Positions 1 to 42,494 of a stretch of DNA of 64,000 bases are shown in pieces (the stretch's first letter is position 1; the number at the start of each line of letters is the position of its first letter). The position numbers and the translations under genes are program-made. Origin of the DNA: Tubulanus polymorphus. Lineage: Eukaryota; Animalia; Nemertea. Below the pieces are notes generated by a model that worked only from the letters and a program-made list of their open reading frames with translations, was not told the DNA's origin and made no database searches. The stretch lies in contig NC_134025.1 in assembly GCF_964204645.1 (NCBI RefSeq), positions 24,036,299-24,100,298 on the forward strand. The letters run 5' to 3'.

Positions 1-99
1 GTCTATTGTTGTTTTTTTTTTTGTATTACGTAATGAACATGTGCTCACTTACCTCAATGACTGTACATAATCGACAATGAAAATTCTTTTCTTCAACAG

Positions 100-19722: not shown

Positions 19723-22363
19723 ATGCAACCGCTTATTTTACTACTAGGGGTAAGCCTGAATTTGACAACCATGATTCAATTTGAAATCGGACAGAAATAC
19801 TTAGTACCGTAATCAATTTTACATTGCAGATTTTGATCGCGGGTAAGTATAGACTCGTTTATTTTTTATCATGTACCCTCATTTTGATTGAAAATATCAA
19901 AAAGATTAAAATTCGTCTAAATTATTAAAGAAATCCGAAATATATTTCTGTGTTGTATGTTCAGGCATTGGGGCCGCAGTCGATGAATCGCGGATTCAGG
20001 TTTGTGATAATTTGTCAAACTTAAAATCTTATTTGGAACTTGGCCTTTCTATTTAAGCTTCATTCAAACCTTTCAGAAACGAACGGCCGCGATAAGATAT
20101 ACGCAACAACGATGGCCACTAGGCATCGTGCCTTACATACTGACTGGGTTCAGTGAGTTGAGTTCTAAAAATGTGCATCTTTAGGTCAAAATGTTCTTAA
20201 AATCATTTCTAGGAATGTATTTAGAAATAACCTGTAGTATGTGTTAAATCGTGATAAAAAGTAGAAGACTACATAATAAAGGTCAATCGAATTTTCATAG
20301 CCGACGTAACACGTTCATAAAAAAATTATGAGGGAATCTGTATGCCCTTATAATTCTTTTATGATTACGCGACTGATTCATTAAATCATATATAACTGAT
20401 ATATTTCAGCGGAAAACCAAAAAGCTGCGATACAGTTGGCTATTAATGAACTAGAAACTGAGTTGGGGCCAAGATGCGTGCGATTTGTACCGAAAGACAA
20501 TCAAGTCGATTACCTTAACATGAAAAATTCTCCGGCTAAAAAGTAAAAGAAGTTTTCACGAAAAAATATCGATTCCCAAATCTAAAACATAGTCACTCCA
20601 GCAAATAAATTATTATGGAAATGAAAAATTTGAATTTGAAGGTGTGGATCTGTGGTAGGAATGACGGGGAAGGAGCAAATAACAAACTTCGCTGCGACTT
20701 GCGTAGATGGTCTTCATCAAGGACTCATAAAACAGCAATTGTTGACTGTTTTGGGCATGAAACCCGAACATCGGCGACCCGATAGAGATAAATACGTGAC
20801 GATCATTACCGACAATATCGACCCAGGTATATGATCCAATGTGAAAATAATCCTATATTTCTTATTAGAATAATCTCCATCATTCTTTGGGTGAGTGGAT
20901 TACAGAAATGAAATTTGGAAATGCTAGATTTTCTCTTCATTATAATTTTTTCACTTTACCTGAAATGTTATCACCCCTTTTATATCTTGAATTTGACATC
21001 AAGCGCAAACATACAGATTTCGTAAGGATCCGAGCGTCGAAACGTTTGGTCTACCATACGATTACGATAGTCTTCTACATTTCTCCGAGACGCAATTCGC
21101 CAAGTCAGTTGGGCTGAAAACGATGGTTCCGATAAAAAGTGGCGTAACGATCGGTCAGAGAACTCACCTGAGCAAATACGACATTCAAACCATTCACAAA
21201 ATGTACAACTGCGGAGGTATCTATCGTATCATTAGGTTAAAAATTGATACCTTGTTTCTCCTAATCGGCCGGGTAATATGGTAAATTGTAATACAATGTT
21301 TCTGTACAGCTCGTTTCTATAGCTGCTGGGTCTGTAATGGTTAGCTTGATCGTGATTTTTAAGCAGCCAGCCGGGTCAACTCAGCACAGATGAGAAACAC
21401 GGTATAATTTTTAACCTTAGACGGAGTTAGATTCTTAGAGCGATATTAAACTTTCCCGTTGGAGAAGTCTTCTATTACACGTGGATGAATATTTCTTGTA
21501 CAACATCTGACCTCGTTTTACAAGATTCGTTTTTTCCTCCGTTTTCCTCATTTTTCTGATTGTAGGGGATATCAATTTCTTCTGCAACTTTTCGGCTAAT
21601 GCATGTGGATTCAGACCAAGACCTCCGGGTGACCCCCTGCGATGGAAACGACTGTTGGCACCGTCACCAAGCGGCCCACCAAATGACCACACTGGAGATG
21701 GTACGGATATGGGTTCAATTCACCCAAGTTTTCGAGTGTCTGTTTTTAATACATAAAATTCACGGATAATTGCAGGGCTCTATATGGGTATCGATATGAC
21801 CGGAGAACAGAGAGGAGCGGGCGGAGCGCTACTATCTACAGAACTACCCAAAAGTGATAAAGGATATTGTATTACATTCTGGTGCGTGCGAAGTTCGATT
21901 CTTTCAAATGTACATATGCAAATATCATTTTCAAAGATTTCCAATATTCCTCTATAATTCAGGTATTACAGATATTCCAAGACTGAATTGACTTCCTGGG
22001 CACCAATAGTTGCGTACAGAGCGAAAGGATTTGTGAAACTGGGTCAGGTAGCCTCCCTTACACACCGAGATAACTACCCATTAAACTGGATCGTATCCAA
22101 GAATCATTTCACATGGCCATCCGACTCTGGGGTATCTATTATTTTGATATATCGTTTATCACCAGGATATCCTAAATTAAAAACCCTTCATACATGCACT
22201 TAGTTCTTTTATTTTCTTGATCCTATAACTGATGGCTATGCAATTGAAATTCGTTTTACATTTTCACCAGCTATTGCTGTACGCCATGGTCTCTGGAGGG
22301 TTCTACGGTCACAAGAATTTTGCAATTGACGACATCAGCATACAGGAAGCGTCCACCTGTTAA
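19723..22363 (+). CDS. Secreted astacin (M12A)-fold + MAM-domain protein, copy A, predicted catalytically inactive (11 coding exons, about 395 aa)
   Basis: Spliced ORF: MQPLILLLG-ILIAG-IGAAVDESRIQ-KR-TAAIRYTQQRWPLGIVPY..CVRFVPK..CGSVVGMTGKEQ..C..GLIKQQLLTVLGMKPEHRRPDRDKYV..PYDYDSLLHF..IGQRTHLSKYDIQTIHKMYNC. The MAM domain follows (CNFS..CGF..W.R..PSGPPNDHTG..YCITFWYY..FAIDDISI). All introns are GT-AG and no in-frame stops were found. Confidence 0.9.
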
Positions 22364-22832
22364 ACTGCAGATTTCCGCCATCTTTCGAAATAAAATAATT
22401 CTATTATCAAAAGGTTGATGGTATATCTCTTAATAAATTGACTGTTCCTCACTCAAAAAACCTTGTTGTTGTAAATATGATTTTAGTGATGATTACGGTA
22501 CAAAGAGACACAAAGAAATAACGCAATGATTTCTCATATTAGCTCAAGGTTTTGTTTATTACGGTACGAATTTATGTCAATCTTGACTAGAATCCAGAAC
22601 CACAGAATACAGAATGACTAGAAAATTTAAACCTTGGTCCACGTATCCCTTGCGTCCATCTTACACTAGATGTACATATAAGCATTTGTTGTATTCCAAA
22701 AGTGTAAAAAATACATCAAATAGTAGATGCGTTAATCTAAAAAAAAAACGTTATAAATGTTTGTGCTCACACAATCGAAAAATAAATTACACTAGCATAC
22801 TTAACTATTTCATACAAAAAACCTCGCAATAC

Positions 22833-22880
22833 ACACACAGGTGCTTTATGATGTCTATGAGAATGGAAAGGAACAACATC
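22833..22880 (-). pseudogene. Internally deleted remnant of the arylsulfatase last exon
   Basis: The - strand encodes PFHSH-RHHKAPVC, which fuses two separate parts (PFHSH and HRHHKAPMC) of the sulfatase terminal exon at 39340-39630. Confidence 0.7.
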
Positions 22881-23385
22881 TAGATTAGTATCAGTTTGCA
22901 ACTGTACGTCATAATAGAAACTATAATATAATGATTTGGACGTAGTGAAATTGATATCGTAGATATTCTGACAACAATAAAACTTCATTTGATGCATCAA
23001 GCCGCTATCGTAGATGTACTGTCAAAAACTTGACGCGTCAAACCACTATCGAAGATATACACAAAAATTGATCTAATCTAAATTCTCAGATAATGGTAGT
23101 GGTAAATTTGAGTGTAGGCGCAATGCAATACCGTACTGTATTGAAATTGATTTAGCTTTCCCTTAAATGTTACCCAACCCGCACTACATCATCTGTATTT
23201 AATCCGTTTGACCAAGTACTGCCCGTCTACCATAAGGTGCTGCTGCTATGCACATCGTTAGCGGATTTGTCATACACTAATTTGAATTTTACTCTGGCAA
23301 TCAATGAATCGGCTGCCAGAGTCGACTCATTTTAGTGTATGAAAGATCCGTTAACGCTGAGCCCTGCGGCAGCACGTCACAGTAG
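22861..23385 (+). repeat. Duplicated spacer/upstream block of the astacin tandem unit, homologous to 35660-36095; its 3' end is also homologous to about 19360-19420
   Basis: Co-linear matches shared with 35660-36095, e.g. TAGATTAGTATCAGTTTGCAACTG, TTTAATCCGTTTGACCAAGTACTGCC, CACATCGTTAGCGGATTT and GGCAATCAATGAATCGGCTGCCAGAGTCGA. Confidence 0.9.
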
Positions 23386-23402
23386 TAGTCGAATGAAACA
23401 TC

Positions 23403-23495
23403 AAATCCGTGTACATTATGTAATTATTAAAACCGAACCACAACGGTTCGGCTGTTGACCGATATCAGGTGGAATGACCTTTTTGTGGTTTCTGT
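23403..23495. mobile_element. Second, more deleted copy of the Penelope-like palindrome family seen at 13016-13230
   Basis: Shares AATCCGTGTA, AACCACAACG.TTCGGCTGTTGAC, ATCAGGTGGAATG and TTGTGGTTT with the 13.1-kb element. Confidence 0.6.
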
Positions 23496-24748
23496 AGGAT
23501 TCGTTAGTAATTATCAAGCCAGGATTTTTAAAGGGGCGTTCTTAAATTATAAAAAATGTCATTTTTGCATGTTCTGTATCCCAGGAAAGCGAGCATCGTA
23601 TGCATATGCTTAAAACCAGAATTCTGTAGCTATTCCACAAACAATAAAAACACGACAAATGAATTTCAGTATAGTTTTGGCCAGGTTTATCTCAGGTTTT
23701 TGTGCGGGGCCTTTGGAGCGTTGAACTATAACGGACAACCGACTGTTACATCTTTAGCAACCGGAGTAACGAATGTTGGATTGGTATTACAGTTAACTCC
23801 GCTGAGCACGTAATTCTGGTGGACCGGTGATTTCTGAGACCTGCACGAGAATATCCCCTGCCAGGATTCGACCTCGATTGAAACTCGATACCGACATTGT
23901 AGATTTTGATATGCGCGGCGGCGCGGGAATCTGAGACACCTATCAACAGAAAATATCATTATCAAAATGGCGTGCTCAGCTAACGTGAAAAGCAAAAAAC
24001 CTCGCCTAATTTCAAACATAGGCAGCCTCCTTTAAGACCCCAAAAATCAGTATTTCAATATTCGGTAAGTATTCGTAACATTAGTTAAAATGGCGAAAAT
24101 ATTTCGTCTTAGATATTATTGCGGGTAATCATATTTCGGAGGTGAATCTAGGCGCACATAGTGAAAATCAGTCAAGCAAGACAAGTTGAAAAACTAAAAA
24201 GGGCCAATGATGAATTTACTGGCCAGGGCGGATCCAGGAATTTAGAATATGGGGCCCAAAACTTTTTGAGCTGACGGTCATCTGACACTGATATTTCTTG
24301 ACCATGGGCTTGGTCTTATGTTCTTAAATGATACTTCAGTGAATTAGTTTTTCCTTGTTTTTATGGATTTATTCTGTTTTTATCCAGTATCAATTTCATT
24401 TATTTTCGGTTTTCATTTGTAGATGTGGCAAACGATTTCATCACAAAGAATTGACATCAGAAACAGTGAAAATAGTGTAAGTTTATTTTATCTTTTAAAT
24501 GTTTTCATCAGTTTCAGAAACAGATAATATTCATCTATTCATGTATCTTCATTCCTTTCTTTTATGTTTGATGTTGAACTCTGGAGGCAAAACCTAAACC
24601 ACAGAAAGCCCTGGATAAATGAACTACAGATTGGAGCGAACAATTTAATTTGTAAGTTTGAATTTTGAATTTGATAATTCTGCATTTATCTAAGCAACGA
24701 AAACAATCTTTGGTTTGTCTATCATACAGGTATCGCTACAATGGGAAC

Positions 24749-25132
24749 TTGGATTCAGGACAGGACAGCAAGGAATCAATGCTTTGCAAATAAGACTTTC
24801 TTGGAATCAGCGCAGGACAACCAGGAATCAGTGCTTTACAATAACAATTCGTTGGATTCAATACAGGGACAAGGAATTAGTACCTTACATGGCTAAGTTG
24901 GATTCAATACAGGACAAAAAACAGTGCTTTACTATAAGACTGTCTTGGATTCTGCACAGGACATCAAGGAATCAGTGTTTCACAATCAGACTTTTTTGGT
25001 TTCGCATCGGACCCGCATTTGGATTCTGCTCAGGACAACAAGGAATCAGTGTTTCATAATCAGACCTTTTTGGATTCAGCACAGGACTTCGGGAATCACT
25101 TTTGGATTCAGCATAGGACATCAGGAATCACT
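24749..25132 (+). repeat. Degenerate tandem repeat, about 50-bp unit (TTGGATTCAGCACAGGACAACAAGGAATCAGTGCTTTACAATAAGACT..), about 9 full or partial copies
   Basis: Recurrent TTGGATTC...CAGGAC...GGAATCA motif at roughly 45-52 bp spacing, with some shortened units. Confidence 0.85.
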
Positions 25133-25482
25133 ATATGTGGAAATTCAAGATAAGTTACATTTATCTATATTTATCGGTTGTTGAATTGATCTTAAGGGAC
25201 CAATTTTATAATGTTTGTTATAAACTATGTTTTGAAATGAAATCACAGAAACCTGTTGCATTTATTCAGTCATTTTAAATTTCTTTATATCGGTGAATAT
25301 TTGGCTATAACCAGTTCATGGTTTGGATTGTTATTTCAGTAAGCCGGATTACAGGTTTTCTAAATTGTGATCAACTCAAATGTTATTTCTAATCAATATG
25401 AAACTGGTTCCTGAGGTCAATAATACAACTGTTATCAATCATGTTCCTTCTTGACAATCAGATCATGTGTATCTTGAGAGTT

Positions 25483-25683
25483 AGAATTTCTGAAGATTAT
25501 ACTGCTGTACTTATTTCATACTGATTGAACAGTTACAGATACATGTGACATTGTGTAGAGATACAGAGTACAGATCACTGCATTACTTCATCCTGTGATT
25601 GAACAGTGATTTAATGTTCTCTCATCTTCATTAGATTCCCATCCATCTAACTAAAACATCAGAACATTTCAACTCATCTAACC
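25483..25683 (+). repeat. Left arm of a 200-bp inverted repeat (partner 29572-29772)
   Basis: Reverse-complement match with scattered substitutions, e.g. CTTCATCCTGTGATTGAACAGTGATTTAATGTTCTCTCATCTTCATTAGATT. Confidence 0.95.
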
Positions 25684-25685
25684 AT

Positions 25686-25889
25686 GGGGTTTGGGGAGGG
25701 TGGATAGGGTTGGGGGAGGGAAGGGGTAGAGGGAGGGCGGGAGGGAAGGGTTGAGGGAGGTTGGGAGGGATGGGGTGAGGGAGGTTGGGAGGGAAGGGTA
25801 CGGGAGGGTGGGAGGGAAGGGGTCCGGGAGGGTGGGAGGGAAGGGGTGAGGGAGGGCGGGAGGGAAGGGGTCCGGGAGGGTGGGAGGGA
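25686..25889 (+). repeat. G-rich 24-bp minisatellite (GGGAGGGYGGGAGGGAAGGGGnnn) with G-quadruplex potential
   Basis: Tandem 24-nt units, each with at least four runs of three or more G. Confidence 0.9.
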
Positions 25890-26560
25890 ATGCCCTCGTA
25901 AAGTCGTACAGTCAACCTCGCTTAATTTGTCGTCGGTTTTTTCCTCGGTTATTCCCTTTAATTTTCATCGGATAATTCGTACTTTGTAATTTGTAAATCG
26001 TAGCCGTATCCACGGTTCCCTTTTTTTAAAAACAATTGAAAATGCGACGCGTAATTCTAATCCCATTGTTCCACCTGCCGACAGTGATTGGCAAGCTCAT
26101 CAATTTCTTGTCAGTCATATTGGCATTGAGCGTAATTTCCCGCCAGTTAAGTCAAAAACAATGAATGGCCATGACACGCAGCATTTGTTCCAACGGAAGT
26201 GAAAACGATTTTTAGCAGGTTTTTATTTGTAGTTTATACAAATTAATAGATAAATCATTAATTCTACGAATTATATATAATTCATTGAAAATACAAATTA
26301 CTTTATGTCGAAAAACCACGGCTCCAAGAGATATGAATTAAGCTAGGTTGACTGTAGTTATTTTGAGTCTTGAAGTTCAGGATATTTCAGAAAATGTGTC
26401 TCATCTCTTTATTTATTCTAAGAAAGGATTGATCATTATGAAACACTTCATGTGGCCACACGTGACTGCAACATGTCATGTTTCAGTTGTTATACATGAC
26501 AAGCTGTATAACCATCGGCCAATTGGACTAGTTCTATTTTACTGGACCTTGTTATTTTTA

Positions 26561-26602
26561 TGAGACCCGGGTTCGATCCCCGGTGAGTGCGCGCATAATT
26601 TC
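26561..26602 (+). repeat. tRNA/SINE-like B-box fragment
   Basis: CCCGGGTTCGATCCCCGG T-arm-like hairpin; no complete cloverleaf. Confidence 0.4.
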
Positions 26603-27588
26603 ACCGTCACTTCTTTCATTTTTGAGATAATTGCCCCCAAATTTTTGAATTGGGACGTTTCCATTTTTAGGGCCATTATTTAAGGCATTGAATGATCACA
26701 AGTTCAGCTCCTTGGCTCCGATCAAATTATGGCTTAATGCACAATTCAATGAAACAACAATCATACGTAATAATTACTGTTGATATCTGGTGGTTTACTG
26801 ATACATTTCCAGCAGAAAGATGTATTCTATTTTCATATTTGCTATTTTATAAACGGCTGTAAATACTGGTTCTAGTTAAACAACTGTATAGGACGATTTT
26901 AGAATTCTTTTAATTTGTAAATAGTGGGTTTTTATCTTATCAACTGTATAGGACGACTTACAAAATTGTTGACAAGAGTCTAGATGCAGTCACATTCATC
27001 GCTGCTTCCTCTCTTTTCTGCAGATTTTTAGACAGAGACCTACTCTTCATTTTTTGAAGAGTATAGAACTCATTAGAATAGTGATAGGTTTTGTAATCAC
27101 TATGGATTTTCAGGCAACACTTCATTTGGCTTCAGCAGTTTACATGGCACAGTATATCACTATTCATAGATATCCTTAATAATTAGTTAAATCCTTTTCC
27201 AAAAGATAGGACACATTTTCTGAGAATAAACTTTACAATTTATAGGTGGTATCTAGTGTATTTTGCCATTTTTCACGATCTTATCATTTTATGAAAGTCA
27301 TTTCATCCTCCGCAGTTATCTAAAATTTTATCAGTGCTCGATCAATTTGTCAGTTTATAATAGCTTTTAGACTTCGATCAATGTATTATTTGACAGTAGA
27401 CTCAAATCAGTGAATTATCGCATTCAGTGTGTACCTAATTCTTATATTAGTGATGAGTGAATAGTCCAATTCTCCTATTCAAAATATGCAATGCTCAATT
27501 TCTCATGTGTGCTCATATAAACTGCTCCAAGTATGAAAATTCATCTCTAGTGCAACCTTTATATACAGTTACTGAACTACGGTCCAGT

Positions 27589-27849
27589 GAACCAAACTTT
27601 GTTTATCAAACCAGGGCCATAAAACTGACTTAACCTTTAATGAAGGCCATGAGCCAAATTTATTCTCATGTTATCAAACCAAAGCCATGAGCTATATTTA
27701 CCTTGCATGGTCACCAAATCAGAACCATAGACCAAACTTTGACTCTTTGGGCACCAAAACTGGGCCGTGGACCAAACTTTGACTCTTTGGGCACCAAAAC
27801 AGGGCCGTGGACCAATTTTAACTCTTTGGTCACCAAAACAGGGCCATGA
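27589..27849 (+). repeat. 40-bp tandem repeat (GACCAAACTTTGACTCTTTGGGCACCAAAACWGGGCCGTG): 3 good copies plus degenerate upstream copies
   Basis: Units start at 27730, 27770 and 27810. Confidence 0.9.
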
Positions 27850-29184
27850 ATGAAAAGTTGTACAAGTTATTTCTGTTGCCTTCACGACTGTATTTGAGAA
27901 TGAAATGATTTATGTGGAACTAATGACGTAGTTAATGAAAGATTCATATGTATTAGTGCCGCTGCTGGTACAGCTGCTGCAGCTGCTGCTGGTGGTGCAA
28001 CTAACACAAACTTTTGCTGTTTGTCTCTAAAAGATTAAACTTGATCCCAGTTGGAACTGATGAAAGTTTTAGTGAGACAACAAAATAAGGAAAAGCCATA
28101 TGAAAAGAAAAAATATAAAACGAATGCGTGAGCTTCTAACAACAAAATAAAACAGCATCAAATGCTGATATAAAGAGTGGGGTCCGAGAGCAATTCGAAG
28201 GTTTAGTGTCCTGCACGCTTAGAGGGCGGGCAGGGGTCTATTCCTACCTCGACTCTAAAGGAGCTGAAAGCGCTTAAAGTCAGATAAAAGAGTAAAAACG
28301 AAAAATGGCAAATGAAGGAAAATGGCTGGAGTTTGATTTGTTGATAAACCCACTGGGTTCAAGTGTTAACTTGAAGACAATCAAATTTACAATCAAACGC
28401 ATTATTTATGACGTATATATTTTGTAAACATCAGCAGTTCATAATCAATGATTAATAAATCTTATGGATAAGATTCCATAAAACAACTTGCTTATATAAA
28501 ACCTCTTGTAGAGAGTATAGAAATATCTCATCTAACTGTCATTGGTCCGCACCGGTTTCATGATAAGAGTGACAACGTTGAATTCGAGAAGCAACATAAA
28601 TAGCGTTAATTTATTTTGATCTCAGCCATCATTCTTGTCCTTGGTTTGTGTTTGCCCTTCTCACAACATTTTGTGAGTGTGGAGGTTTGGTTCGGGCTCA
28701 TTTCCTTTGTTCGGGTGAACCCTCAGTATACCTCCCCCTCCCTTACAACATATTAAATTAAGTTCCTCGGGTTTGGTTTGATGTTTTGTAGATGAAACAA
28801 TTCAAACTCGCATCATTTGATGAAATGAAATCTGTTTACAGACGACTGCTGCAACTTGTCGTGAAACTGAGATATATTGTGAATACTTATTGGAGGGAGT
28901 AGAAATAAAAGGAATAATTTGAATGAATTCGATGAAATTGACTAAGAAATCATCTAAAATTCAAGCCATGTGATTTTCAAGACCGCACTAGGCATAATGA
29001 TCATTTGAATGCCTACAAAATTGTAGAAAAGTATCTGTGAGTCCTGTCAATGATGCAATTGATTAAGATTTCAATTTATATATGAAATTGATATGATCGT
29101 GAAAAATGGCAAATCGTTTTGTAGTTATTGTACAGATAAGAGGTGTCTGAGGAGGAGACAAGAGAGTTGAGGAGAAGGCTACGT

Positions 29185-29571
29185 GGGAGGGCATTAAGGG
29201 AGGGCATTGAGGGAGGGCATTGAGGGAGGGCATTGAGGGAGGGAAGGGGTCCGGAGGGCGGGAGGGAAGGGGTCCGGGAGGGTGGGAGGGAAGGGGCGAG
29301 GGAGGGCGGGAGGGAAGGGGCGAGGGAGGGCGGGAGGGAAGGGGCGAGGGAGGGCGGGAGGGAAGAGGCGAGGGAGGGCGGGAGGGAAGGGGTCTGGGAG
29401 GGCGGGAGTCAAGGGGTGTGGGAGGGAAGGGGCAAGGGACGGCGGGAGGGAAGGGGCGAGGAGGGCGGGAGGGAAGGGGTCTGGGAGGGTGGGAGGGAAG
29501 TGGTCTAGGAGGGCGGGAGGGAAGGGGTCTGGGTGGGGGGAGGGACGGGGTCTGGGAGGGTCGGGTCGGGA
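29185..29571 (+). repeat. G-rich minisatellite: 13-bp GGGAGGGCATTGA units followed by the same 24-bp unit as 25686-25889
   Basis: Directly visible tandem units, G-rich on the + strand. Confidence 0.92.
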
Positions 29572-29772
29572 GGTTAGGTGAGTTGAAATGTTCTGATGTT
29601 TTAGTTAGACAGATGGAAATCTAATGAAGATGAGAGAACATTAAATCACTGTTCAATCACAGGATGAAGTAGTGCAGTGATCTGTACTCTGTATCTGTAC
29701 ACAATGTTACATGTATCTGTAACTGTTCAATCATTATGAAATAAGTACAGCAGTTTAATCTACAGAAATCCT
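29572..29772 (-). repeat. Right arm of the 200-bp inverted repeat (partner 25483-25683)
   Basis: Reverse complement of the left arm. Confidence 0.95.
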
Positions 29773-29858
29773 GTACTGTTTCTGTCTTATTGATTGATAA
29801 CTTTGAGATGTTACATTCTGCTCTATTGTCACTGATTATTGTTTCGTTTTCTTTTAGT

Positions 29859-32153
29859 TAAACAGGCTCATTAAAAAGTTACGTAAGTACAAAACTGGTA
29901 ATGAATTTCTCTACAGAATTCTTCACAGTCTCTGTTATTGTTTTACTCTCATTTACAGGAGATACACACTGCACCACCACTGCACCACCACCAGCACCAG
30001 CACCAGCAGATGTTTCCAGCATTCAATCACTTCAAGATCACTGCTTAGTTTGAAGTGAGTTTTCAATCGTTAAAACCAATTTATGCCCTGATCAAAGTTG
30101 GAATTATCAAGATCTTTATGTTTTCCATACATATTTTCAGTTAACAGAGCTATGGAGGTTTTGGCACCCAACAGTCAACCTCAAACCGCTGGCTTAAAAA
30201 CATTGATGAAAATGGTAAGTTTTTGATTTGGTGTGAAACTGCTCTTATTTCAAACAGCTTAACTGACAAATTTTAACATTTGTTTTTAGGGGCTGAAATA
30301 AGTGGAACCCTTGACAGAATCTGGGAACAGTAAACATTGGGAATTCACTTCACATTTTTTAAAGATGGACATCACTTTAGATCCTCAAAACAAAAACGGT
30401 ACCGGTAAATATCTCTACAGATTCTAGTCTCTGTTTGACTGTAAATTTATAAACTCATTTCCTGATTAGAAGCTATGTTAATCAGTGAAGGCGAATTTTC
30501 AATCACTTCTATTCTGGTCAAAGTTCAAATCATCAAAATTATACAACGTTAGTATTCAAGTGCCCAAAATGAAGCTGAACTTGCAGTAAACATTGCGCTC
30601 TACAAATCTAACACAAGTCAGAAGTGGTGAGTTTCATATCGATTTATTGCAGTAATTTGTGGTGATCTTCAAATCAAGTCCAGAAAATGATGTGTTTTGA
30701 TCGGTCAATGTTGGCAGGTATCAACGTTTTACTAGAAGACGCTACGCAGTTCAAATCTACGATCAAACACCTCAGAAATCTGTATACACACGGCACATTG
30801 TGATAAATTACTCATTAACCTGGTGGGTTTTCTGTTAATCGAACACAAACAAATTGCTGTTTCTATTTATTTCATTGGCGGCTAGCAACTGTAAAATTTT
30901 ATTTGTCGCATGAAATTTGTCGAATAGAACAATTTGAAAACGGATCAAAGATTGAATAATGGTGTTGGATTATCTAGAATTATAAGGTAATTATTAATTC
31001 TAATTTCCGAAATATATCATGAAAACAATTCCCACTTGACTGTTAATTCAATCGAACATTTTCAATGTAATATTTGCAGACGCAAGTTTTCTCTCTTCTA
31101 GGACGGAGTGGGGACCAATATGCCATTTGACAAGGACAGGGACTAGCCATCTTGCTGGAGATTAATATGCTGCCACTTATTTCCGAGATGTGCAATTTTA
31201 AAGTTTAAAGTCAAATATATGACCGGTATTATTGTGCTGGCCGGCACGGGCAGGCGACTGTTGTTCTGTTTGTGATGGTTTCATGGACTGCGTATCACAT
31301 ATTCATAAAAACAGTCATCCCCTGATTTGTCTCTAAAAGCTGTAATGTAATTTTTGCTAATAAATAGCCTGACTCGGGCATAGAATAATGATTTAAACCC
31401 CACTATATGCAAATTTAAAAGATTAAAGGCGTAATTTATTCATCAGGAATCAGAATCAAAATAGTGAAAGCAAATGAAGAAATAACTAGAACAACCTATG
31501 CCTAAAATAACAAAACCTCTCAACAAGCACTTAACACCCTCTAGCTTTACTTTTCTCAATTAACTTGTTTTTCCCTCTCTATTTTTCCCTGTTTTAGTTA
31601 TTTTTTCAGACTTGATGATGGTCTCTAGAGAAACTCCTAAATGTTGTGTCTTCAATCCTTTTAAATTTGTGTTAAGTGGGTTTTAATTTTAGAGTGAATA
31701 TACGGTAGCTGCAAAGCAGCGATAATGGGTTTTCTGCCTCGCCAAGCTAATCACAATTGAGGGAATTAGAGAAAACCCTAATGATGGGCTTTCTGAGATG
31801 GATCAAGGGCATGAGATAATTTACGCACTCCATGTTACTGCATGAGTTTGTTTGTACCTCTGGACCCTGTTTCATTGGTCCAGTTTTGTATTAGATTTGT
31901 ATGATACACATGTACAATGTAAATGGACCTATTTTAAGTCACTCAGTCAATGAAACCAAAACTTGAATTTGTAAATGTATGAACTTGTGTGATATTGTAA
32001 ATGGAAATATTTTGTTAAATGGACATTTTTTGTATGACTGTAAAGTCCCACAATCAATGAAACCAAAAAGTTGAAATATCGACAGGTTTTCTTTGTTATG
32101 GGACAATAATATTTTGTGCGAACTGACGTTACTGTTCTATTATTTGAAATAAA
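29859..32153 (+). pseudogene. Decayed multi-exon gene or spliced non-coding transcript of unknown family
   Basis: A series of exon-sized blocks bounded by pyrimidine-rich YAG acceptors and GTAAGT/GTGAGT-type donors (about 29959, 30141, 30291, 30718, 31080), with AATAAA at about 32148. The most plausible reading frames contain premature stops. Confidence 0.4.
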
Positions 32154-33094
32154 GATGAATTTTCTGTGTTGTTCTAGTTATGAATACAGAGGCCAGCAGT
32201 TTCACACACTCAGTGCGTCACATCCCACTGGTTCAGTTTCATAGAAATAATTTACTCGAGTCGTAAGTCTTTTTTAAGAAATTGAGCCGAGGGTCCAGTT
32301 ACACAAACCAATATTGCGTTCAAACATGTTTTATTTTGAAAAGAGTCTGAATCAAAGTGAAGTTTTATGAAATTTAGCCGCGGGTCCATTCGACATTGAA
32401 TTGTTGAATTGCAGTTGACCCAGTACCGGCTATGTGAACGGATCACGTGGACCCGGTTTCATGAACATACTCTAAAATTGATTCATCCTTCGTGAAACTG
32501 GACTCGAACTGAATTGAATATCCTACTAACTCGCTATTTAGTGTGCGAAACTGCAGCATCTAAAACTGATTGAAACCCTTTCGCATAAAAAACCAAATTA
32601 TCTAGGGTACGGTTTCACAGGATTAACTTAAAACGTAGATACCTGGTAATGAAGAAATTAATCTACTTAATTAAACATCAATTTCTTTAAAAAATTCAGT
32701 CAAAAAGTCGATCGTGTTTGTAAAACGGCGGCCCCTTGTATCCGGCATATGAAATTGTTCGTTTAGTCCTCGCGAGGATTCGTACCCTGGCATGCGAAGC
32801 TATCATTCTTGCTCTGGCATGCGAGGATTCATTGATTCTTACCCTGGGTGGTGAGGGTGCCAATTCGATGTGTTTAATACCACACCAAATTCTCAAAAAG
32901 GTTGGTGCGTTTCTTATGAAAGCAGAAAATGAAAGCTTTTTATGACGAATACAGGTAACGTTATTTACGTTTTGAATATGAATGCCTTCCAAAATTAAAT
33001 AAATGTTAACAAGTCTGTAAAACAATGCAGAATAATAAGACAAATGTTGCGTTGCGGTCTTGCGTCTTTTTTTTAAAACATCGGAAAAAGCCAG

Positions 33095-33200
33095 ATTATG
33101 TCTACTCGAGGATCGAAACCGGGCACCCCTGGTTCTCTATTCCGCATCAGGACCACTGAAATCAGAAACCGTAATTTCTTGGATCGAACCCGGGATATTC
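33095..33200 (-). repeat. Degenerate tRNA-derived (SINE-like) fragments
   Basis: Two GGTTCGATCC/GTTTCGATCC B-box-like motifs on the - strand; no intact cloverleaf. Confidence 0.4.
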
Positions 33201-33214
33201 GCCTAGTTTGTCAA

Positions 33215-33471
33215 TGATGCTATGATCGCCATCTATTGGAATTTGGCTGAACTGACTAGATAGCTCTTACTAGTCTCACTGACTTTTCTTTAATCCGGTA
33301 AAGTCACGCTCGCCATCTAGTGGGTATAACCATCATTAGACTGTAGCGGCATAGGAATCCACCAGCTGGCGAGTGTGATTTCAGCACATTGAAGAAGAGT
33401 CAGTGAGACAAATTAGAGCTGTCTAGTCGGGCGGTTCAGCCAAATTCCAATAGATGGCGATCATAGCATCA
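33215..33471. mobile_element. 257-bp foldback/MITE with about 110-bp inverted arms, TG..CA ends and a 4-bp TSD
   Basis: The outer 38 bp form a perfect inverted repeat (TGATGCTATGATCGCCATCTATTGGAATTTGGCTGAAC). TCAA is present at 33211-33214 and 33472-33475. Confidence 0.85.
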
Positions 33472-34089
33472 TCAAGTCGTAACGAAGTGTGGCAGAGATG
33501 CGATGAAACTCAAGTTCGTGGAACTTCGTGGAAATCAGAATTTTACGATAATCATTTTCCCACAAATATAATACAATTTTTTTCAGATCACTGATTAAAA
33601 ACAAATGTCTAGCCAAATGTGTTGCTCAGAGAACACATAACAGTAGTAATCCTGGAGAGAGTGGAAACTCACCGAGTTGTGGATATTTCATTTATGGCAG
33701 GGGTTGCCTGTCGCCAGTCATCATTCCCCACCTGGATGTATCGATTGCCAATTAATTCGTGTCAATCTTAATACTTTTAAATGGGATCCAGTTTACGAAT
33801 AAATTGTGTCATATACAAAATGGTCAGTCCTCCTGGGGTAGGCACAACAGTTGCCAGAGCAGTTGATACGATTATCCACATCTACATTAACTATGCAGTT
33901 ACCGACTGCTAATCGACATAACCATTTTAAAATACAAAACATAACAACGAAATCATCATTTAATTCCGTACATTTAATTTATTATATAAAACAACTCTAG
34001 TAGGACAGTGTGAATGGTGATGTCACATTTCTATTCTCTTCTACAACCTTTGGAAAATATAGAAAAGATAACTTCCCATTTTCATACAT

Positions 34090-34160
34090 AATAGTAATAA
34101 CATTAATAATAATCATTATAATGCATTTTCAATAATAATAATAATGATAATGATAATAAT
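34090..34160 (+). repeat. Imperfect (TAA)n microsatellite
   Basis: Runs such as AATAATAATAATAATGATAATGATAATAAT. Confidence 0.8.
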
Positions 34161-35393
34161 TCAGAGCTCTTAGTTATCATGAAGGCCACAAATGATGAAG
34201 CACCTGTGCTCAGGATATGTTCAAAAAATTATTATCAATATACATTTTATGTACATTATGAACATCTCATGATAGCAGCCAGATCACAAATAATTCTACC
34301 GTGCACCAGCTACAAAAACGATTCGTATAAATCCCACTAGTGGAACCTCTGAAAAACAAATCCGGCTAAAATGGCGCTGAAAAATTCTAAACAAACGAGA
34401 AAAGTTGAAGATATTTCGTAGCGGATATTTTTTAAAATCAGTAACCCCATGGTTAGTTCGGCAAACATAATCGCCTTGTTCAAATAATTGAAAGTGGAAC
34501 CTGGTATTTGAGGGTTCCGTTTAATCTTACTATGGAATGCGAAGGTTTTAATTCACCCCGGCGTGCTCGGGTTCAGTAGCTAATCGGCCTAATCTAAACG
34601 GCTCACTAAAACGTTTTGCAACCTGCAAATCAGCTTGTCAAATCAGTTGTTGCAAATCAGCGATGTTGAAGATGGGCCAGCCCTCAAATTCCTACAGACC
34701 CGAGGGTTGTAGTGGTTATAAGCGACACGTGCATGATGCGGACGCTTCGCAGGCGCGGGTCCCACGCGGCGCTTGGTGCGATTAAAAAAAAGGTTTTGAA
34801 TTCCCCGCAAAATAATCGGCGAGCTAAAAGCACCATTTTGCTCCAAGAAGCAGGGTTTCCAACGGTCCTTTTGAAAAAATTCCTTCCAAATTTCATTTGT
34901 TTGTATTTTTTGTGGGCAATTTTATCGCAAATAAATAAGGTTGTTTGACTGGGAACTTTAGCTGCAATATGTCTTTCTTGGTGAAGGTTTTGGGAAAATG
35001 CTTTTTCTATGGGTCCTCATTTTATTTGAAAGTACTTTTTCCATGGTCAATTCCGTGCTTGTGTTTTTAAATGGAATGTGAGTGATTTGTTATGCAGTAC
35101 CGGATAGAGTTAGGGGTTTTGGCGAAATTGACCACAAATTATATTCGATCCTACATGACTGAATCAGATTCTAAACAAAAAGAAATTTCATGACATGGCT
35201 TGTTTTGTCTATTTTCAACCTCCGAAAAATGAACGATTGAACTATGGCTTGAATCGTACACACGTTGTGATACGATATAAGTGACTGGTTGCCTGTCCCG
35301 AAGATAGAGACCGGTAACCAGTCTACGATACCAAAATCATGAAGGGACTTTCTAAAAGGGGCGTCCCGTTCGAACCCTGGCTACGGAGCTTGT

Positions 35394-35513
35394 TTACACA
35401 CCCATTAAACTGGATCGTACCCAATAATCATTTCACCTGGCCATTAACTCTGGGGTATCTATCATTTTGACTTATCACCACGATAGATTATCTGAAGTTA
35501 ACCCTTCATGCAT
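35394..35513 (+). pseudogene. Remnant of MAM exon 10 and the adjacent intron from a lost third astacin-MAM copy
   Basis: CCCATTAAACTGGATCGTACCCAATAATCATTTCACCTGGCCATTAACTCTGGGGTATCTATCATTTTGAC matches 22077-22150 and 38510-38581. Confidence 0.9.
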
Positions 35514-35519
35514 AATTTG

Positions 35520-35685
35520 ATATAAGCTTTCAAATAGTTCTATATTAAAGGGTTAGGATGGTAGTGATCTATACTGCTCAAATGGATCACGCTCGATATC
35601 ATAAACTAACGGCTTACCGGTAATCGAATGATCGTCCATGTTCTTTGAATGAAGTCAGTGAATGGAAAGGAAGCATCTCTAGATT
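35520..35685 (-). pseudogene. Duplicated fragment of the arylsulfatase last exon
   Basis: TTTCAAATAGTTCTA.ATTA..GGGT.AGGA.GGTAGTG, TCGATATCATAAACTAACGG, TCGAATGATC.TCCATGTTCTT and GTGAATGGAAAGGA are co-linear with 39479-39635. Confidence 0.85.
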
Positions 35686-36399
35686 AGTATCAGTTTGCAA
35701 CTGCATGTCCCAATAAAAACTCGTAATCATTTGGAAACGACGAAATTGGTATCCCGTAGATATTCTGTCAAAACTAAAACTTCATTTGATGCCTCGAAAT
35801 CGCTATCGTGGATGTCAAACACTAGTATCCAATAAAAAAATTTAATCTGATAAATCTACATACCATTCTCAAATAATGGTACCCACCCACACACTACATC
35901 GACTATATTTAATCCGTTTGACCAAGTACTGCCTTCCTATCATAAGGTGCTGCCGGTTTGCACATCGTTAGCGGATTTTCCATACACTAATTTGAATTTT
36001 ACTGTGGCAATCAATGAATCGGCTGCCAGAGTCGATTCATGTTAGTGTATGAAAAATCCGCTAACGATGAGCATAACGGCAGCACTGCACAGTAATATTC
36101 GTTTTCGTAAGGCAGCCCCTATAGCCCGTCTGTACACCTACAATTACACCCATAAAATTACAGACCTTATTTGTATTAAGCCCCTAATACTAAGTACACA
36201 TTTTCTTGACAGCTAATCATATGTCTTTTTTACTTTCTAGAACATCAATAACATATGGCTGAGAGTAAACCTACTTTTTAATTTAGTTAAACATAATTCA
36301 TCATATTCAGTAATTTGACGACCCTTTGCAGTCTGTTGTCGATTACTGTTATAGATTGCCTTAAGTTGAATAAATCATTTGTAGTGAATATCATCAAAG

Positions 36400-38804
36400 A
36401 TGCAACCGCTTATTTTACTACTAGGGGTAAGCCTGAATTGACGACCAATTCGATTCGATTTACAATCGGACAAAAATTGTTAGTAATCAATCTTACATTG
36501 CAGGTTTTGATTGTGGGTAAGTAGGCCCTAGACTAGTTTATTTTTCATCATGTACCCTAATTTTGATTAGAAAAATATTAGAAAAGATTAAGAATCGATT
36601 CAATTATTAAAGATTATCATAAGTGAGATATATTTCTGTGTTTTATGTTCAGGTATTGGCGCTACCGTCGATCAATCACGGATTCAGGTAAGTGATAATT
36701 TTCAAAATTTAAATTTTATTTGGAATTACTTACATATTGGCCTTATATTATGAGCTACGTTTAAACCTTTCAGAAACGAACGGCTGCGATAAGATATACG
36801 CAACAAAGATGGCCGCTAGGCATCGTGCCTTACATAATGACTGGGTTCAGTGAGTTAAGTTCTATATATGTATCCTTACGTTAATATGTTCTTAAGATCA
36901 TTCCCAAAATTGTATTCACAAGCATTTTGTAACTATATGCCTTAATGTCATTAAATAAGTAGAAATCTATATACGTAGGCCCTTGCAATTGTTTTTGTCC
37001 ATTACGTAACTGACTTGTTTCAATTACACGACTGTTTCAGCGGAAAACCAAAAAGCTGCGATACAGATGGCTATCAATGAACTAGAAACTGAGTTGGGGC
37101 CAAGATGCGTGCGCTTTGTACCGAAAGACAATCAATTTGATTACCTTAACATGAAAAATTCTCCGGCTAAAAAGTAATCGAATTCTAAATTCTAAAAGAT
37201 TGGCAACTACAGCAAATGTATTTTGCAGATATAGAAACTTTTGAATTTGAAGGTGTGGATCTGTGGTAGGAATGACGGGGAAGGAGCAAATAACAAACTT
37301 CGCTGCGACTTGCGTAGATGGTCTTCATCAAGGACTCATAAAACAGCAATTGTTGACTGTTTTGGGCATGAAACCCGAACATCGGCGACCCGATAGAGAT
37401 AAATACGTGACGATCATTACCGACAATATCAACCCAGGTATATGATCCAATGTGAAAATAATTTTATATCTCTTATTAGAATGATCTCCATCATTCTTTG
37501 GATGAGTTGATTACAGAAATCAAATTTGGAAATGTTAGATTTTCTCTTCATTATATATCATTTTTTCACTTAACCTGAAATGTTATCACCGCTTTAATAT
37601 CTTGAATTTGACATCAAGCGCAAACATACAGATTTCGTAAGGATCCGAGCGTCGAAACGTTTGGTCTACCATACGATTACGACAGTCTTCTACATTTCTC
37701 CGAGACGCAATTCGCCAAGTCAGTTGGACTGAAAACGATGATCCCGATAAAAAGTGGTGTGACCATCGGTCAGAGAACTCACCTGAGCAAATACGACATT
37801 CAAACCATTCACAAAATGTACAACTGCGGAGGTACTCATCGTATCATTAGGTTAAAAATTGACACCTTGTTTCTTCTAATCGGCCGGGTCATATTGTGAA
37901 CTGCACGTTTCATTTCTAAGCTACCGGGCCTGCCATATTTGTACATCATCTTGACATTTTTCAGGCTTCGTTTTTCCTCCTTTTTTGATTGTAGGAGATA
38001 TTAGTTTCTCCTGCAATTTTTCGGCAAATGCATGTGGATTCAGACCAAGACCTCCGGGTGACATCCTGCGATGGAAACGACTGTTGGCACCGTCACCAAG
38101 CGGCCCACCAAATGACCACACTGGAGATGGTATGGATATAGGTTCAATTAAATAAAGTCTTCAAATTTTTTTGAGGGACTGTTTTTTGAAAATTCGCCGT
38201 GGATAATTACAGGGCTCTATATGGGCATCGATATGACAGGAGAACAGAGAGGAGCGGGCGGGGCACTTCAGTTTGATCTACCCAAAAGTGATAAAGGATA
38301 TTGTATCACATTCTGGTACGTGAAGCTTGTTTCTTTCAAAGTGTAGATATGAAAATATCAATTTCAAAGATTTCCATTATTTCTCTATGATTTAGGTATT
38401 ACAGATATTCTAAGACGGAATTGACTTCGTGGTCATCAATAATTGCGTACAGAGCGAATGGATTTGTGAATCTGGGTCAGGTAGCCTCCCTTACACACCA
38501 TAAGAACTACCCATTAAACTGGATCGTATCCAAGAATCATTTCACCTGGCCATCCGACTCTGGGGTATCTATTATTTTGACATATCGTTTATCACCAGGA
38601 TATAGATTATCATAAATTCTAAACCCTTCATGCATGCACGTAATTCTTTCACTGTCTTGATCAACTGAAGGCTACGTATTCATAATTCGTTTTTCATCTT
38701 TTTTTCCTCAGCTGTTGTTGTACGCGGTGAAATCTGGAGGGTTCTACGGTCACAAGAATTTTGCTATTGACGACGTCAGCATACAGGAAGCGCCCACCTG
38801 CTAA
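36400..38804 (+). CDS. Secreted astacin-fold + MAM-domain protein, copy B, predicted catalytically inactive
   Basis: Same 11-exon structure as copy A, with the same QQLLTVLGMKPE (from 37344) and SLLHF substitutions. The frame is intact, with a one-codon indel in the MAM domain, and ends ISIQEAPTC-stop. Confidence 0.9.
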
Positions 38805-39322
38805 ACTGCAGATTCCCGTCATCTTTTGAAATGAAATCATTTTCTATTCAAAAGGTTGGCAATATATCTCTTAATAAATTTACTTTTCCTCACTTAAAGC
38901 TTGTTGTAGTAAATATGATTTTAGAGAAGATGCCAAGACACAAAGAAACAACGCAATAAGTTATAATATTAGCTCATGATTTTATTCATTAAGGTACCAG
39001 TTTATGTCAATCTTGACTAGAATCTAAAGACAGAATGACTAGAAAACTAAAACCTCTGTCCAAGTATCTCTTGTGCCCATCTAACACTAGATGTGTATAT
39101 ACATTTGATCTTTTCCATAGTGTACAAAACACATTAAAAAGCAGATTACTTAATCTAAAATAACATTATACATTTTTGTGCTCACACTTAAACGAAAGAT
39201 ACACCATACTAACATACTAGTTCATACAAAATATCCGGGCTTTGGTCCCATTTTATTTGGAATGTGTGGAAACCATGAATTTGACCTGCTGGAAATTTAA
39301 CTAAAATTTGCACTGAAATTTT

Positions 39323-41925
39323 TCAAACATTTTTCAATGCACACATAGGTGCCTTATGATGCCTGTGACAATGACAATATGGTGGATTACAGCAGGGTTG
39401 CACGAACGAATTTCTGAAGTTCGGATGTGCAAGCATAGTAGTAGGACTAAGGGTTGCAATATGATCCATAATAATCGGATACAAGGTTTCAAATAGTTCT
39501 ACATTATCGGGTAAGGACGGTAGTGGATACTGCTCGAACGGATCAAGTTCGATATCATAAACTAACGGTTTATTCGAATGATCATCCATGTTCTTACAAC
39601 TGAATGAATGTGAATGGAAAGGAGCAGTATCAAGATACAGGTTCTCCTTCGGAATACCTTGCGGGCAGTTTAATTTACGGAATGACGGGCTGTCGTCAAC
39701 GGTTTTATGAGTTTTGAAGTGAATTTTATAGTTTTTGTAGCGCATCGCGACGATGTTGTCGTCGCAGTAGAAGAACAACGTATCGTGAGATTTTCCATTT
39801 CGATGAATTAGTTCATTGAGGATGCTGTGACCGTCAAATATCTGCCTGAAGTTTTCAGTGATTCCTGCTACGTCCAACAAAGTTGGGAAAATATCCATAG
39901 TACTGATGATGCGACTGGACACTGTTCCAGGGGAGATTTTATCCTTCCACCAGGCTATTGCTGGCACCCGTAATCCTCCTTCAAAGAAGTTCCCCTTCCC
40001 ACCTATAAAGAAAGACGAAATTAATTTCAAATCTATAGAACCAATAAATACTCAGCATTGGCATTTCTAATTAACGTATTGCAATTCCTATAAAAACTTG
40101 GACCGAAGTTACAACTGTTCTCTAAGTAATTACAGTAATAGAATTTACCCCTGAGCTTGCCAGCACTGCCTCCTTCAGTGCAAACTTCCAAATGAGGACC
40201 GTGATCAGACAGAAATAACACCAGCGTATCAGTGTCGATTTCTAACAGTTTCAATGTGTCAATCACCTCTCCAACAGCCCAGTGCATTTCATTCACCATG
40301 TCTCCATAAGGACCTGCACAAATTGATATATGTAGTAGAAAGAGTGAACAGTAATAATCAAAGATGCTGGAAAAGAAAGCCCAAAATCAGTGATTAATCA
40401 AAAAGTTCTACTGGTTTTTACCGTATGTTTTTTGTATTACAGTATACTTATCATCAACATGTTTAAATTCATTTGTATATACAATGTACGCTGAGAATCC
40501 AAAATAAACTACATTACTATTATCTCTATTATTAGTATTACTATGCTATCATTATCATCGCAAGTCATTTGTCTTTTCTACCTCTTTTTGAACTGCCATT
40601 GAATCTTTCGCTAGCAAACATCGAGGAATGAGTTTGCGGCAGCGAAAAGTAAAGAAAGAACGGGTTTTCCTGTTGACTGTGATTATGGAGAAAAGTCTTC
40701 GCGTCATGGACAAGCTTCGATGTGAGATGCTTCGTTACGATAGGCTGCTCAACAATCGTACGATTATAGTAGAGAAATGACATCAGAGGATTTGGATAGG
40801 GTAAATGCAGCTGAAAATGATAAACAGAACTAATGATTAAATTGGATTTTTGTAATTCATCTATGCTAATAAGCTTATAGAGTCGCAATATAAGTCCATG
40901 TTATCACTTATCAAATCTAATAATTCAAGCTGTGAATATTCAAATAGATAAACAATTCCAAAACCAAAGATGATTGAAGCAAATAATGGATCGTAGTGGC
41001 GCCAGATATACAAATTCCTTCTCAAACATTCAATACAGTCTACATGTACTATCAACACTGCATGGTCGATGTGGAAGTCTGGTGACACCTGCAACAAATC
41101 AGCCAATGATAAGATGAACATGTAGCGCATATGTATTATAGTATACCTTAGTATCATCTGAATTCCAAACCAGACTGAACGGTAATATCGTCCCTACATA
41201 ATCAAATCCATGATTGTGAGGCAGAAAATTTCCATCATTACTCGTGAACTCATTGATTCCTTAAAAACCAAAATTGAGATTTCTGGAGGGAATATTTCAC
41301 ACACACACACACGCTAAATCAAACTATCGATCAAACTGTATTACCTAGATGCCACTTTCCAACTATTCCAGTCGTGTAGTTAGCAGTTTTCAAAGCTTCG
41401 GCAATCGTTATCTCGGATTTTGATAATCCGCTGAAGTGATTCGGAAAGAACACCCTTTCACCACCGATGACACCAGATCTCATGGGTAAGCGACCTGCAA
41501 CGTGAAAACACAATGAAAATTTTTGATAGGGTGATCGTAGTCTGAATACCAGATGTTGTTACAGTCCCCTACAACAAACGTTTCAGGAACAACGGCTAGA
41601 TACTAGACTAGGGTGATCGGGTTACTTGAAAATGACCCGGGCACTCCATATCAAGTAAAACATTACCAGTCAATAAGGCTCCTCGACTGGGAGTACAGTA
41701 TACATCAGCTGAATACCAATGTGTGAATTTCATGCCTTCCTGCGCCAACTCGTCGATGCGACCGAACTCCTGGTTTGGATGGCCATAACTTGACAGGTCT
41801 CCATAACCAAAGTCATCAGCCAATATCAGAATGATGTTGGGTGTTCTGTTCCGTTCAGCATGCAGCCCTGACGACGCAGTACCAAGAAATACGTGCACAA
41901 ATAACAGTACATGTACATATTTCAT
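39323..41925 (-). CDS. Secreted arylsulfatase (type I sulfatase, sea-urchin Ars-like), 6 coding exons
   Basis: Signal peptide [31 protein letters not shown], formylglycine motif [44 protein letters not shown] and C-terminal QPCCNPPYC. An in-frame upstream ATG at 41967 is an alternative start. Confidence 0.93.
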
Positions 41926-42204
41926 TATTGTTAATTGTGGCAGGATTATAGTCACTCGATTCGACATCCAGCTACCTGGAAATATATCAAACATGGCGCG
42001 TCTATGACCGTAACTGTAGTTGAGTAAAAACTTGGCATACGTCGATTTAAAACGCCCACCCCAGCACAAGCTGTGGCTCGTGCAAGTGACAGATGACAGA
42101 ACACAATAATATGACAACCGGAAACAATGTGATCTTATTTATTTCTATCGAAAGGTAATGGCTATTTCGGATTCTTCGAGAACTTACACTCTCGTGTCAG
42201 AGCT

Positions 42205-42385: not shown

Positions 42386-42494
42386 GCCCAAAGCTTTGCA
42401 CGGTTATGCATTTCATTCATCTCAAGTCCATCCGTCAAGGTCGTTGCGCTTATTTGACATTTCTGAAGTTTGCTTGTAATAATTGCGCCTGAAA

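Follow-up and report, generated by a model that had tools for sequence, protein, structure and literature searches.

Two pseudo-astacin-MAM genes in the window

We analysed a 64,000-nucleotide stretch of the genome of the palaeonemertean ribbon worm Tubulanus polymorphus (NCBI RefSeq assembly GCF_964204645.1, contig NC_134025.1, positions 24,036,299 to 24,100,298 of the forward strand), referred to below as the window, which carries two tandem genes for astacin-MAM proteins with a degenerate catalytic site. Copy 1 (19723..22363, + strand, 394 aa) and copy 2 (36400..38804, + strand, 393 aa) are both 11-exon genes with the same exon layout (exons assembled by coordinates) and an open frame without internal stops. 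The exons of copy 1 are 19723-19749, 19830-19842, 19965-19999, 20077-20152, 20410-20542, 20642-20826, 21004-21216, 21566-21700, 21776-21881, 21963-22131 and 22271-22363; those of copy 2 are 36400-36426, 36504-36516, 36653-36687, 36774-36849, 37041-37173, 37253-37437, 37619-37831, 37995-38129, 38213-38315, 38396-38564 and 38712-38804. All 20 introns are GT-AG with matching phases, the stop codons lie at 22361-22363 and 38802-38804, and a candidate poly(A) signal AATAAA is found 3' of the stop of copy 1 (22432..22437, + strand), with a counterpart AATAAA at 38873, downstream of copy 2. A high-copy genomic repeat sits in intron 7 of copy 1 (21239-21363), where contig depth was far above that of the flanks. 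In both copies the protein consists, in order, of a predicted signal peptide, an astacin domain and a MAM domain.

We found that the zinc motif of both copies (20733..20768 and 37344..37379, + strand) translates to QQLLTVLGMKPE. Using phmmer, QQLLTVLGMKPE aligned without gaps to HELMHAIGFYHE of crayfish astacin, which places the replacements as His1 to Gln, Glu to Gln, His2 to Thr and His3 to Pro; the family-specific Glu and RPDRD are kept. The Met-turn reads SLLHF (21069..21083 and 37684..37698, + strand) and aligns to the SLMHY or SIMHY of intact astacins, with Met replaced by Leu and the zinc-ligand Tyr by Phe. A first-pass annotation of this DNA, made from the letters and their translations, had described a degenerate zinc motif at these positions, the loss of all three His and the catalytic Glu and an SLLHF Met-turn, and the alignment to astacin bears this out. 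A search by eye for another HExxH in a shifted register found none, and rescue by RNA editing was rejected because, under the genetic code, A-to-I changes cannot convert these Gln, Thr and Pro codons to His or Glu.

The astacin domain was recognised by Pfam (PF01400) in exon 6 (37.9 bits) and exon 7 (60.3 bits), both above the cut-off of 22.5, and these were the only two of eight exon pieces from the window genes with any Pfam match, the other six having none. The features of the astacin fold are present, namely two disulfides (Cys 73, 96, 115 and 226), the family-specific Glu and PEHRRPDRD, and the structural motifs RWP..VPY, CVRF, the four astacin Cys, RPDRD, YDY.S and IGQR are kept; the first-pass annotation was also right that structural residues and splice sites had been retained. 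The MAM domain is encoded by exons 8-11 (21566..22363 in copy 1 and 37995-38804 in copy 2, + strand) and was identified by BLASTP similarity and its four Cys (positions 234, 241, 304 and 394): the C-terminal 167 residues match the Pfam-confirmed MAM (PF00629) of protein P0220 with an E value of 1.6e-8 over 160 residues. Single MAM exons had no Pfam match (0/4 pieces) and MAM exon 8 had no match in the PDB, so the comparison with Pfam by HMMER that the first-pass annotation had proposed succeeded for Astacin, whereas for MAM it failed with single exons and the domain was recovered through BLASTP to a confirmed MAM. No TRAF, EGF or transmembrane domain, as found in the meprin subfamily, follows the MAM domain; the protein terminates at the last MAM Cys and has no transmembrane tail. 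Judged by these residues, the dead window proteins are members of the astacin fold family and not active M12A peptidases.

A third dead paralog and an old clade

A search of the genome recovered a third dead paralog at G000:C6:10.56 Mb (hereafter the C6 paralog), with the zinc motif QQLLHVLGMKAE and the Met-turn SLLHY. Given a GC donor (GCAAGT) at intron 10, its gene model has an open frame of 384 residues and the last exon aligns end to end; this probable GC-AG intron lies at L031:8448 (G000:C6:10563947). Where active M12A peptidases have the zinc ligands of HExxHxxGxxH, both window copies have Q, T and P and the C6 paralog has Q, H and A. The general-base Glu is Gln in all three dead genes, and the SxMHY Met-turn is SLLHF in the window copies and SLLHY in the C6 paralog. 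The Gln-Gln replacement pair and the Met-turn Leu are thus common to all three, and the C6 paralog retains one His and the Met-turn Tyr. Most parsimoniously, His1, Glu, His3 and the Met-turn Met would already have been gone in the common ancestor, with His2 and Tyr lost later in the window lineage.

The C6 paralog is 60% identical to the window proteins in the astacin domain and 38% in the MAM domain, and differs from the window genes by a dN of 0.38 and a dS of 2.3-2.8, which is near saturation. The three dead genes formed a 100/100 clade on a stem of 0.84 in a tree which took 42 of 44 rows (L023 and L026 were left out as too short) and whose backbone is unresolved; its group 'degenerate_other' is a comparison of labelled groups, whose four rows are not shown to be one clade. 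Because a third paralog with near-saturated synonymous sites belongs to the same clade, the dead state is old. The astacin family of this genome is large, with at least 161 Pfam astacin exon matches, and 23 of the 27 zinc-motif exons recovered are intact, three belong to this clade and one (L014) to a separate degenerate gene. The dead trio is therefore an old clade nested in a large family of intact astacins. L014 belongs to a second, independent degenerate astacin (L033/L014, G000:C4:7056.5 kb, with RELIHVLGFGYE and SVMHL), which adjoins a tandem array of intact astacins and is sister to intact L024 in the tree.

The dead genes have also lost the latency latch of the family. In copy 1 the N-terminal part (19723..20082, + strand, exons 1-3 and the start of exon 4) encodes a predicted signal peptide of ~17 aa and a spacer of ~10 residues ending in Lys-Arg, with no FxGDI; the signal peptide and cleavage site were judged by inspection, with hydropathy and a motif scan. 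The spacer between the predicted signal peptide and Lys-Arg is ~7-10 residues in all three dead genes, and FxGD was absent from every forward frame upstream of each of them. According to section 2.1 of a review of the family (PMC9848320), astacin pro-domains range from 34 to 486 residues and commonly carry FxGDI, the Asp of which blocks the zinc. None of the three dead genes has a pro-peptide of 34 or more residues with FxGDI, while the intact control does. The closest intact astacin-MAM paralog (L043, G000:C4:3129.1-3131.6 kb), which was the best non-dead match in the genome for exon 7 (54%) and MAM exon 8 (40%), has FEGDI, an R/NAV activation site, HELVHALGFWHE and SLMHY; it is unlinked to the dead genes, which lie on C1 and C6 and not on C4. 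A protein that has long ceased to be an enzyme would be expected to lack both the zinc site and the latch, as seen here, and their absence would make for an open cleft. That these proteins are still enzymes, working through a different metal or chemistry, is extremely improbable. The C6 paralog does keep one His and the Met-turn Tyr, and the two Gln are conserved, but in the window copies all three His, the Glu and the Tyr have been replaced, and missing too is the latch on which active secreted astacins normally depend (PMC9848320).

We used HMMER to search 1.84 billion protein representatives and inspected the top 150 proteins, which contained 206 matched stretches. No members or orthologs of the clade were found among these representatives. 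Among the top 150 proteins the best alignments over the astacin domain had 38-39% identity, the zinc motif was intact in 171 stretches, degenerate in 24 (many by a single change) and partial in 11, and the best full-length match was XP_074655437.1 from T. polymorphus itself, which equals locus L009 at 97-99%. Word-based searches with the exon 6 and exon 7 alignments returned one ordinary astacin each (1/50 and 1/57 candidates), which is weak evidence, and the ESM Atlas returned generic astacin clusters only. To date, only the T. polymorphus genome has yielded this clade, other nemerteans not having been searched directly.

Fully dead astacin domains were found elsewhere in two Hypsibius receptor tyrosine kinases, a Strongyloides protein and two unnamed animal proteins. 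The kinases, OWA50740.1 (P0129) and OQV24185.1 (P0140) of Hypsibius exemplaris, are auto-named 'Kit' and each carry three dead astacin domains at the N-terminus; we found no paper joining astacin, receptor tyrosine kinase and tardigrade. The unnamed proteins, P0184 and P0159, each carry an active astacin domain in tandem with a dead one, and P0159 also has a MAM domain. Dead astacin domains are thus recurrent among animals and of independent origins. We found no literature on naturally dead astacins in a search which did not extend to subscription journals, MEROPS or supplements, so that surveys of nematodes or helminths may well describe some. The first-pass annotation had correctly described a tandem pair; the much older C6 paralog, the loss of the latch, the conversion tract described below and the dead astacins of other animals had all escaped it.

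Purifying selection and gene conversion

The two window copies differ by ~39 synonymous and 33 replacement changes, giving an overall dN/dS of 0.24 (95% bootstrap 0.14-0.40). The ratio was 0.12 for the astacin domain (bootstrap 0.03-0.28; 12 synonymous vs 5 non-synonymous differences) and 0.33 for the MAM domain (bootstrap 0.17-0.61; ~24 replacement changes), with all three intervals below 1. Over 1148 aligned intron bases the copies differ at 14% of positions and by 37 non-triplet indels (some of these being alignment artefacts), whereas the exons show no frameshift and a single in-frame codon gap. When neutral substitution at the intron rate was simulated 5000 times, both frames stayed open in 0.06% of runs (P 0.0006).

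It should be noted that a 191-bp block covering exon 6 (20629..20819, + strand, equal to 37240-37430) is identical between the copies. It holds no synonymous changes at ~43 sites where ~7 were expected (P ~0.001), and exon 6 has probably been homogenised by gene conversion. As the zinc-motif exon lies inside this probable tract, its identity between copies is not itself evidence of selection. Outside the converted region (exons 6-7) dN/dS is 0.28 (0.16-0.48). The window copies are under purifying selection and are not decaying pseudogenes, in agreement with the first-pass annotation, which had pointed to mostly synonymous differences in the astacin domain and named a dN/dS near 1 as a result that would speak against its reading.

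The 3' remnant of a third tandem unit lies at 35400..36101 (+ strand) and comprises a terminal piece of MAM exon 10 that has lost one base, followed by downstream flank. This decayed remnant illustrates the fate of an unselected copy and shows that the array once held at least three units. A 1-base deletion at 22121 in one X1 contig was considered as a lesion of copy 1 and rejected, as it fits the remnant at 35400 and not the gene. Also between the copies, at 25483-29772, lies an element of ~4.3 kb that is likely a non-autonomous DNA transposon: it is bounded by terminal inverted repeats of 200 bp (94.5%) and has 24-bp purine-rich arrays in its interior. Neighbouring genes in the window are one which we take to be usherin-like (1-13600; FN3 repeats, a 3.1-kb exon), presumed DCAF4-like (16787-17767), arylsulfatase (39323-42138) and TECPR2-like (48800-55700) genes, and TBCC (42483-43520), the identity of which was confirmed. 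No neighbouring gene suggests a role for the dead astacins.

A binding role and its relation to known proteins

We consider it somewhat probable (about 55%) that these intact pseudo-astacin-MAM genes encode a secreted binding protein, which grips a protein or peptide partner through an open cleft together with the MAM domain and does not cut it. The N-terminus is the sole strongly hydrophobic stretch of the window protein by hydropathy, and the product is therefore predicted to be soluble and secreted, in agreement with the first-pass annotation. The signal peptide would direct secretion and trimming would occur at Lys-Arg; with four Cys, the family Glu and RxDRD kept, the two-lobed fold would be retained; the lost residues would preclude proteolysis; and the cleft, without zinc and latch, would hold the partner, the MAM domain joining in binding. 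By analogy with the dead ADAMs, the pseudo-astacin clade most likely works by binding, and we counted the dead astacin ectodomains of the tardigrade receptor kinases for this reading as a precedent. As for the setting, secretion from the epidermis or a gland (mucus, tube or proboscis) is the likeliest, by analogy with the astacins and astacin-like proteins mentioned in passages of two nemertean mucus proteome reports (PMC7460313, PMC11768458); this is the least certain part of the proposal.

We compared the conservation of segments framing the cleft (edge strand, active-site helix and Met-turn, with catalytic columns excluded) with that of the rest of the domain. Between the window and C6 proteins 38 of 44 cleft positions were identical vs 43 of 76 elsewhere. 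Among intact paralogs (55 pairs of 11), the two pairs at a matching 55% elsewhere had 28/44 and 25/44 identical, and the dead pair differed from the 28/44 pair with a post hoc Fisher p of 0.025. This is a hint only that the cleft may be in use. A tentative and more specific version, which we hold to be possible at best, is that the astacin scaffold has been rebuilt as a latch-free, receptor-like trap in which a conserved Gln-Gln pocket in place of the zinc site would capture a specific extracellular ligand. Equally tentatively, that ligand could be a protein of prey or microbes, or else one that serves the worm's active astacins as substrate or signalling protein.

Several points weigh against the binding reading. 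The cleft comparison was post hoc and used segments chosen by the authors which are also structural core, the fold and the shape of the cleft were deduced from sequence, and nothing in the analysis points to either a partner or a tissue. The passages seen from a mucus and proboscis proteome of the palaeonemertean Cephalothrix name no astacin (PMC12846013). We found no transcript or protein evidence for the dead genes. The three dead proteins were missing from three protein searches which returned two intact astacins of the genome (P0168 and P0175), with dead proteins expected to score 130-150 bits vs a list cut of 50.5; they may therefore be missing from the public annotation, which speaks weakly and ambiguously against expression. 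The X1-X3 contigs run through introns and are hence DNA. X4, RNA by guess, had nothing on copy 1 or copy 2, and is uninformative, since the neighbouring TBCC matched only 85% over 87 bases.

Recently silenced or non-functional duplicates, their intactness left over from past selection and gene conversion, would accord with the missing expression evidence, the absence from the protein collections searched, the conversion tract and the decayed neighbouring unit. This is nevertheless very unlikely, given a dN/dS of 0.28 (0.16-0.48) outside the converted exons, the lack of exon frameshifts and an unlinked C6 paralog which is also intact at near-saturated dS; no more than one of the copies could have died very recently.

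The size of the genome's astacin family (at least 161 exon matches; 23/27 zinc-motif exons intact) and the intact astacin-MAM relative leave room for a regulator of the worm's own active astacins, acting by MAM pairing with an active paralog, by substrate competition or by soaking up inhibitors. In P0184 and P0159 an active astacin domain shares its chain with a dead one, and MAM aids the dimerisation of meprin beta (PMC9848320, section 2.1). We regard this as a doubtful possibility: the dead genes, on C1 and C6, are unlinked to their intact astacin-MAM relative on C4, and their MAM is only ~40% identical to that of the intact paralog in exon 8. Furthermore, the zinc site that several astacin inhibitors contact is absent here.

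It is unlikely that the protein is a structural or adhesive secretion or a gamete-coat protein, in which the astacin domain is a folded spacer and the MAM does the work. MAM domains appear adhesive in the part consulted of PMC9848320, and dead ADAMs act in sperm maturation, some shedding the dead domain, according to passages of PMC11266112. The MAM is also the faster-changing domain (dN/dS 0.33, ~24 replacements, 38% identity to C6), as a recognition surface might be. However, the astacin domain is the more conserved (dN/dS 0.12; 60% vs 38%), and its cleft-framing segments the most.

Pseudopeptidases are known among the ADAMs and other families, and the dead ADAM metzincins are well known. 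The tables of a 2024 pseudopeptidase review list ADAMs and no astacins (PMC11266112, tables only), and a term search in a 2023 astacin review did not return the word 'inactive' (PMC9848320). What is new here is an old, selected three-gene pseudo-astacin clade with an unlinked third paralog and joint loss of the latch. In the trio, catalysis was lost stepwise and the latch was lost with it while selection persisted, and the genome itself supplies a control in the form of an active relative. Lists of nemertean venom and mucus proteins name some as 'astacin-like metalloprotease' on the basis of similarity, and not all of these may be enzymes. Were the trap reading true, no earlier soluble pseudo-astacin would have had a defined role, and this one would serve as a model for a broader, uncharacterised class to which the tardigrade receptor-kinase ectodomains belong.

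Like the M12A astacins with a MAM domain (meprins and the Limulus and Hydra astacins, as far as described in the sections seen of PMC9848320), the dead proteins have a signal peptide, an astacin domain of ~200 residues with two disulfides, the family Glu and RxDRD, and a MAM downstream, and the intron positions around the zinc exon are the same as in the intact paralogs of this genome. Unlike them, they lack the zinc ligands, the general-base Glu and FxGDI, have Leu in the Met-turn, and have ~10 pro-residues vs 34-486 (same source, section 2.1), with one extra residue before the mature start. Intact L043 has the same domain order as the dead genes but differs in its FEGDI, complete zinc motif, SLMHY and a linker between domains; the tree leaves its sister status unresolved. 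Hypsibius OWA50740.1 and OQV24185.1 and Strongyloides A0A0N5CH95 share the Pfam astacin fold, the replacement of the three His and Glu in several domains and the kept RxDR, yet they have other architectures and fall outside the QQLL clade where tested, the kinases not being in the tree. The dead ADAMs of M12B (ADAM2, 11, 18, 22, 23, 32 and unc-71; Table 2 of PMC11266112) are likewise metzincin pseudopeptidases with a replaced HExxH, their motifs often begin with Gln (ADAM2 QLLSL, ADAM18 QLLGL) and, in the passages seen of that review, they act via protein binding. Unlike the window proteins, they belong to another subfamily, are membrane-anchored, carry disintegrin domains and keep the Met of the Met-turn.

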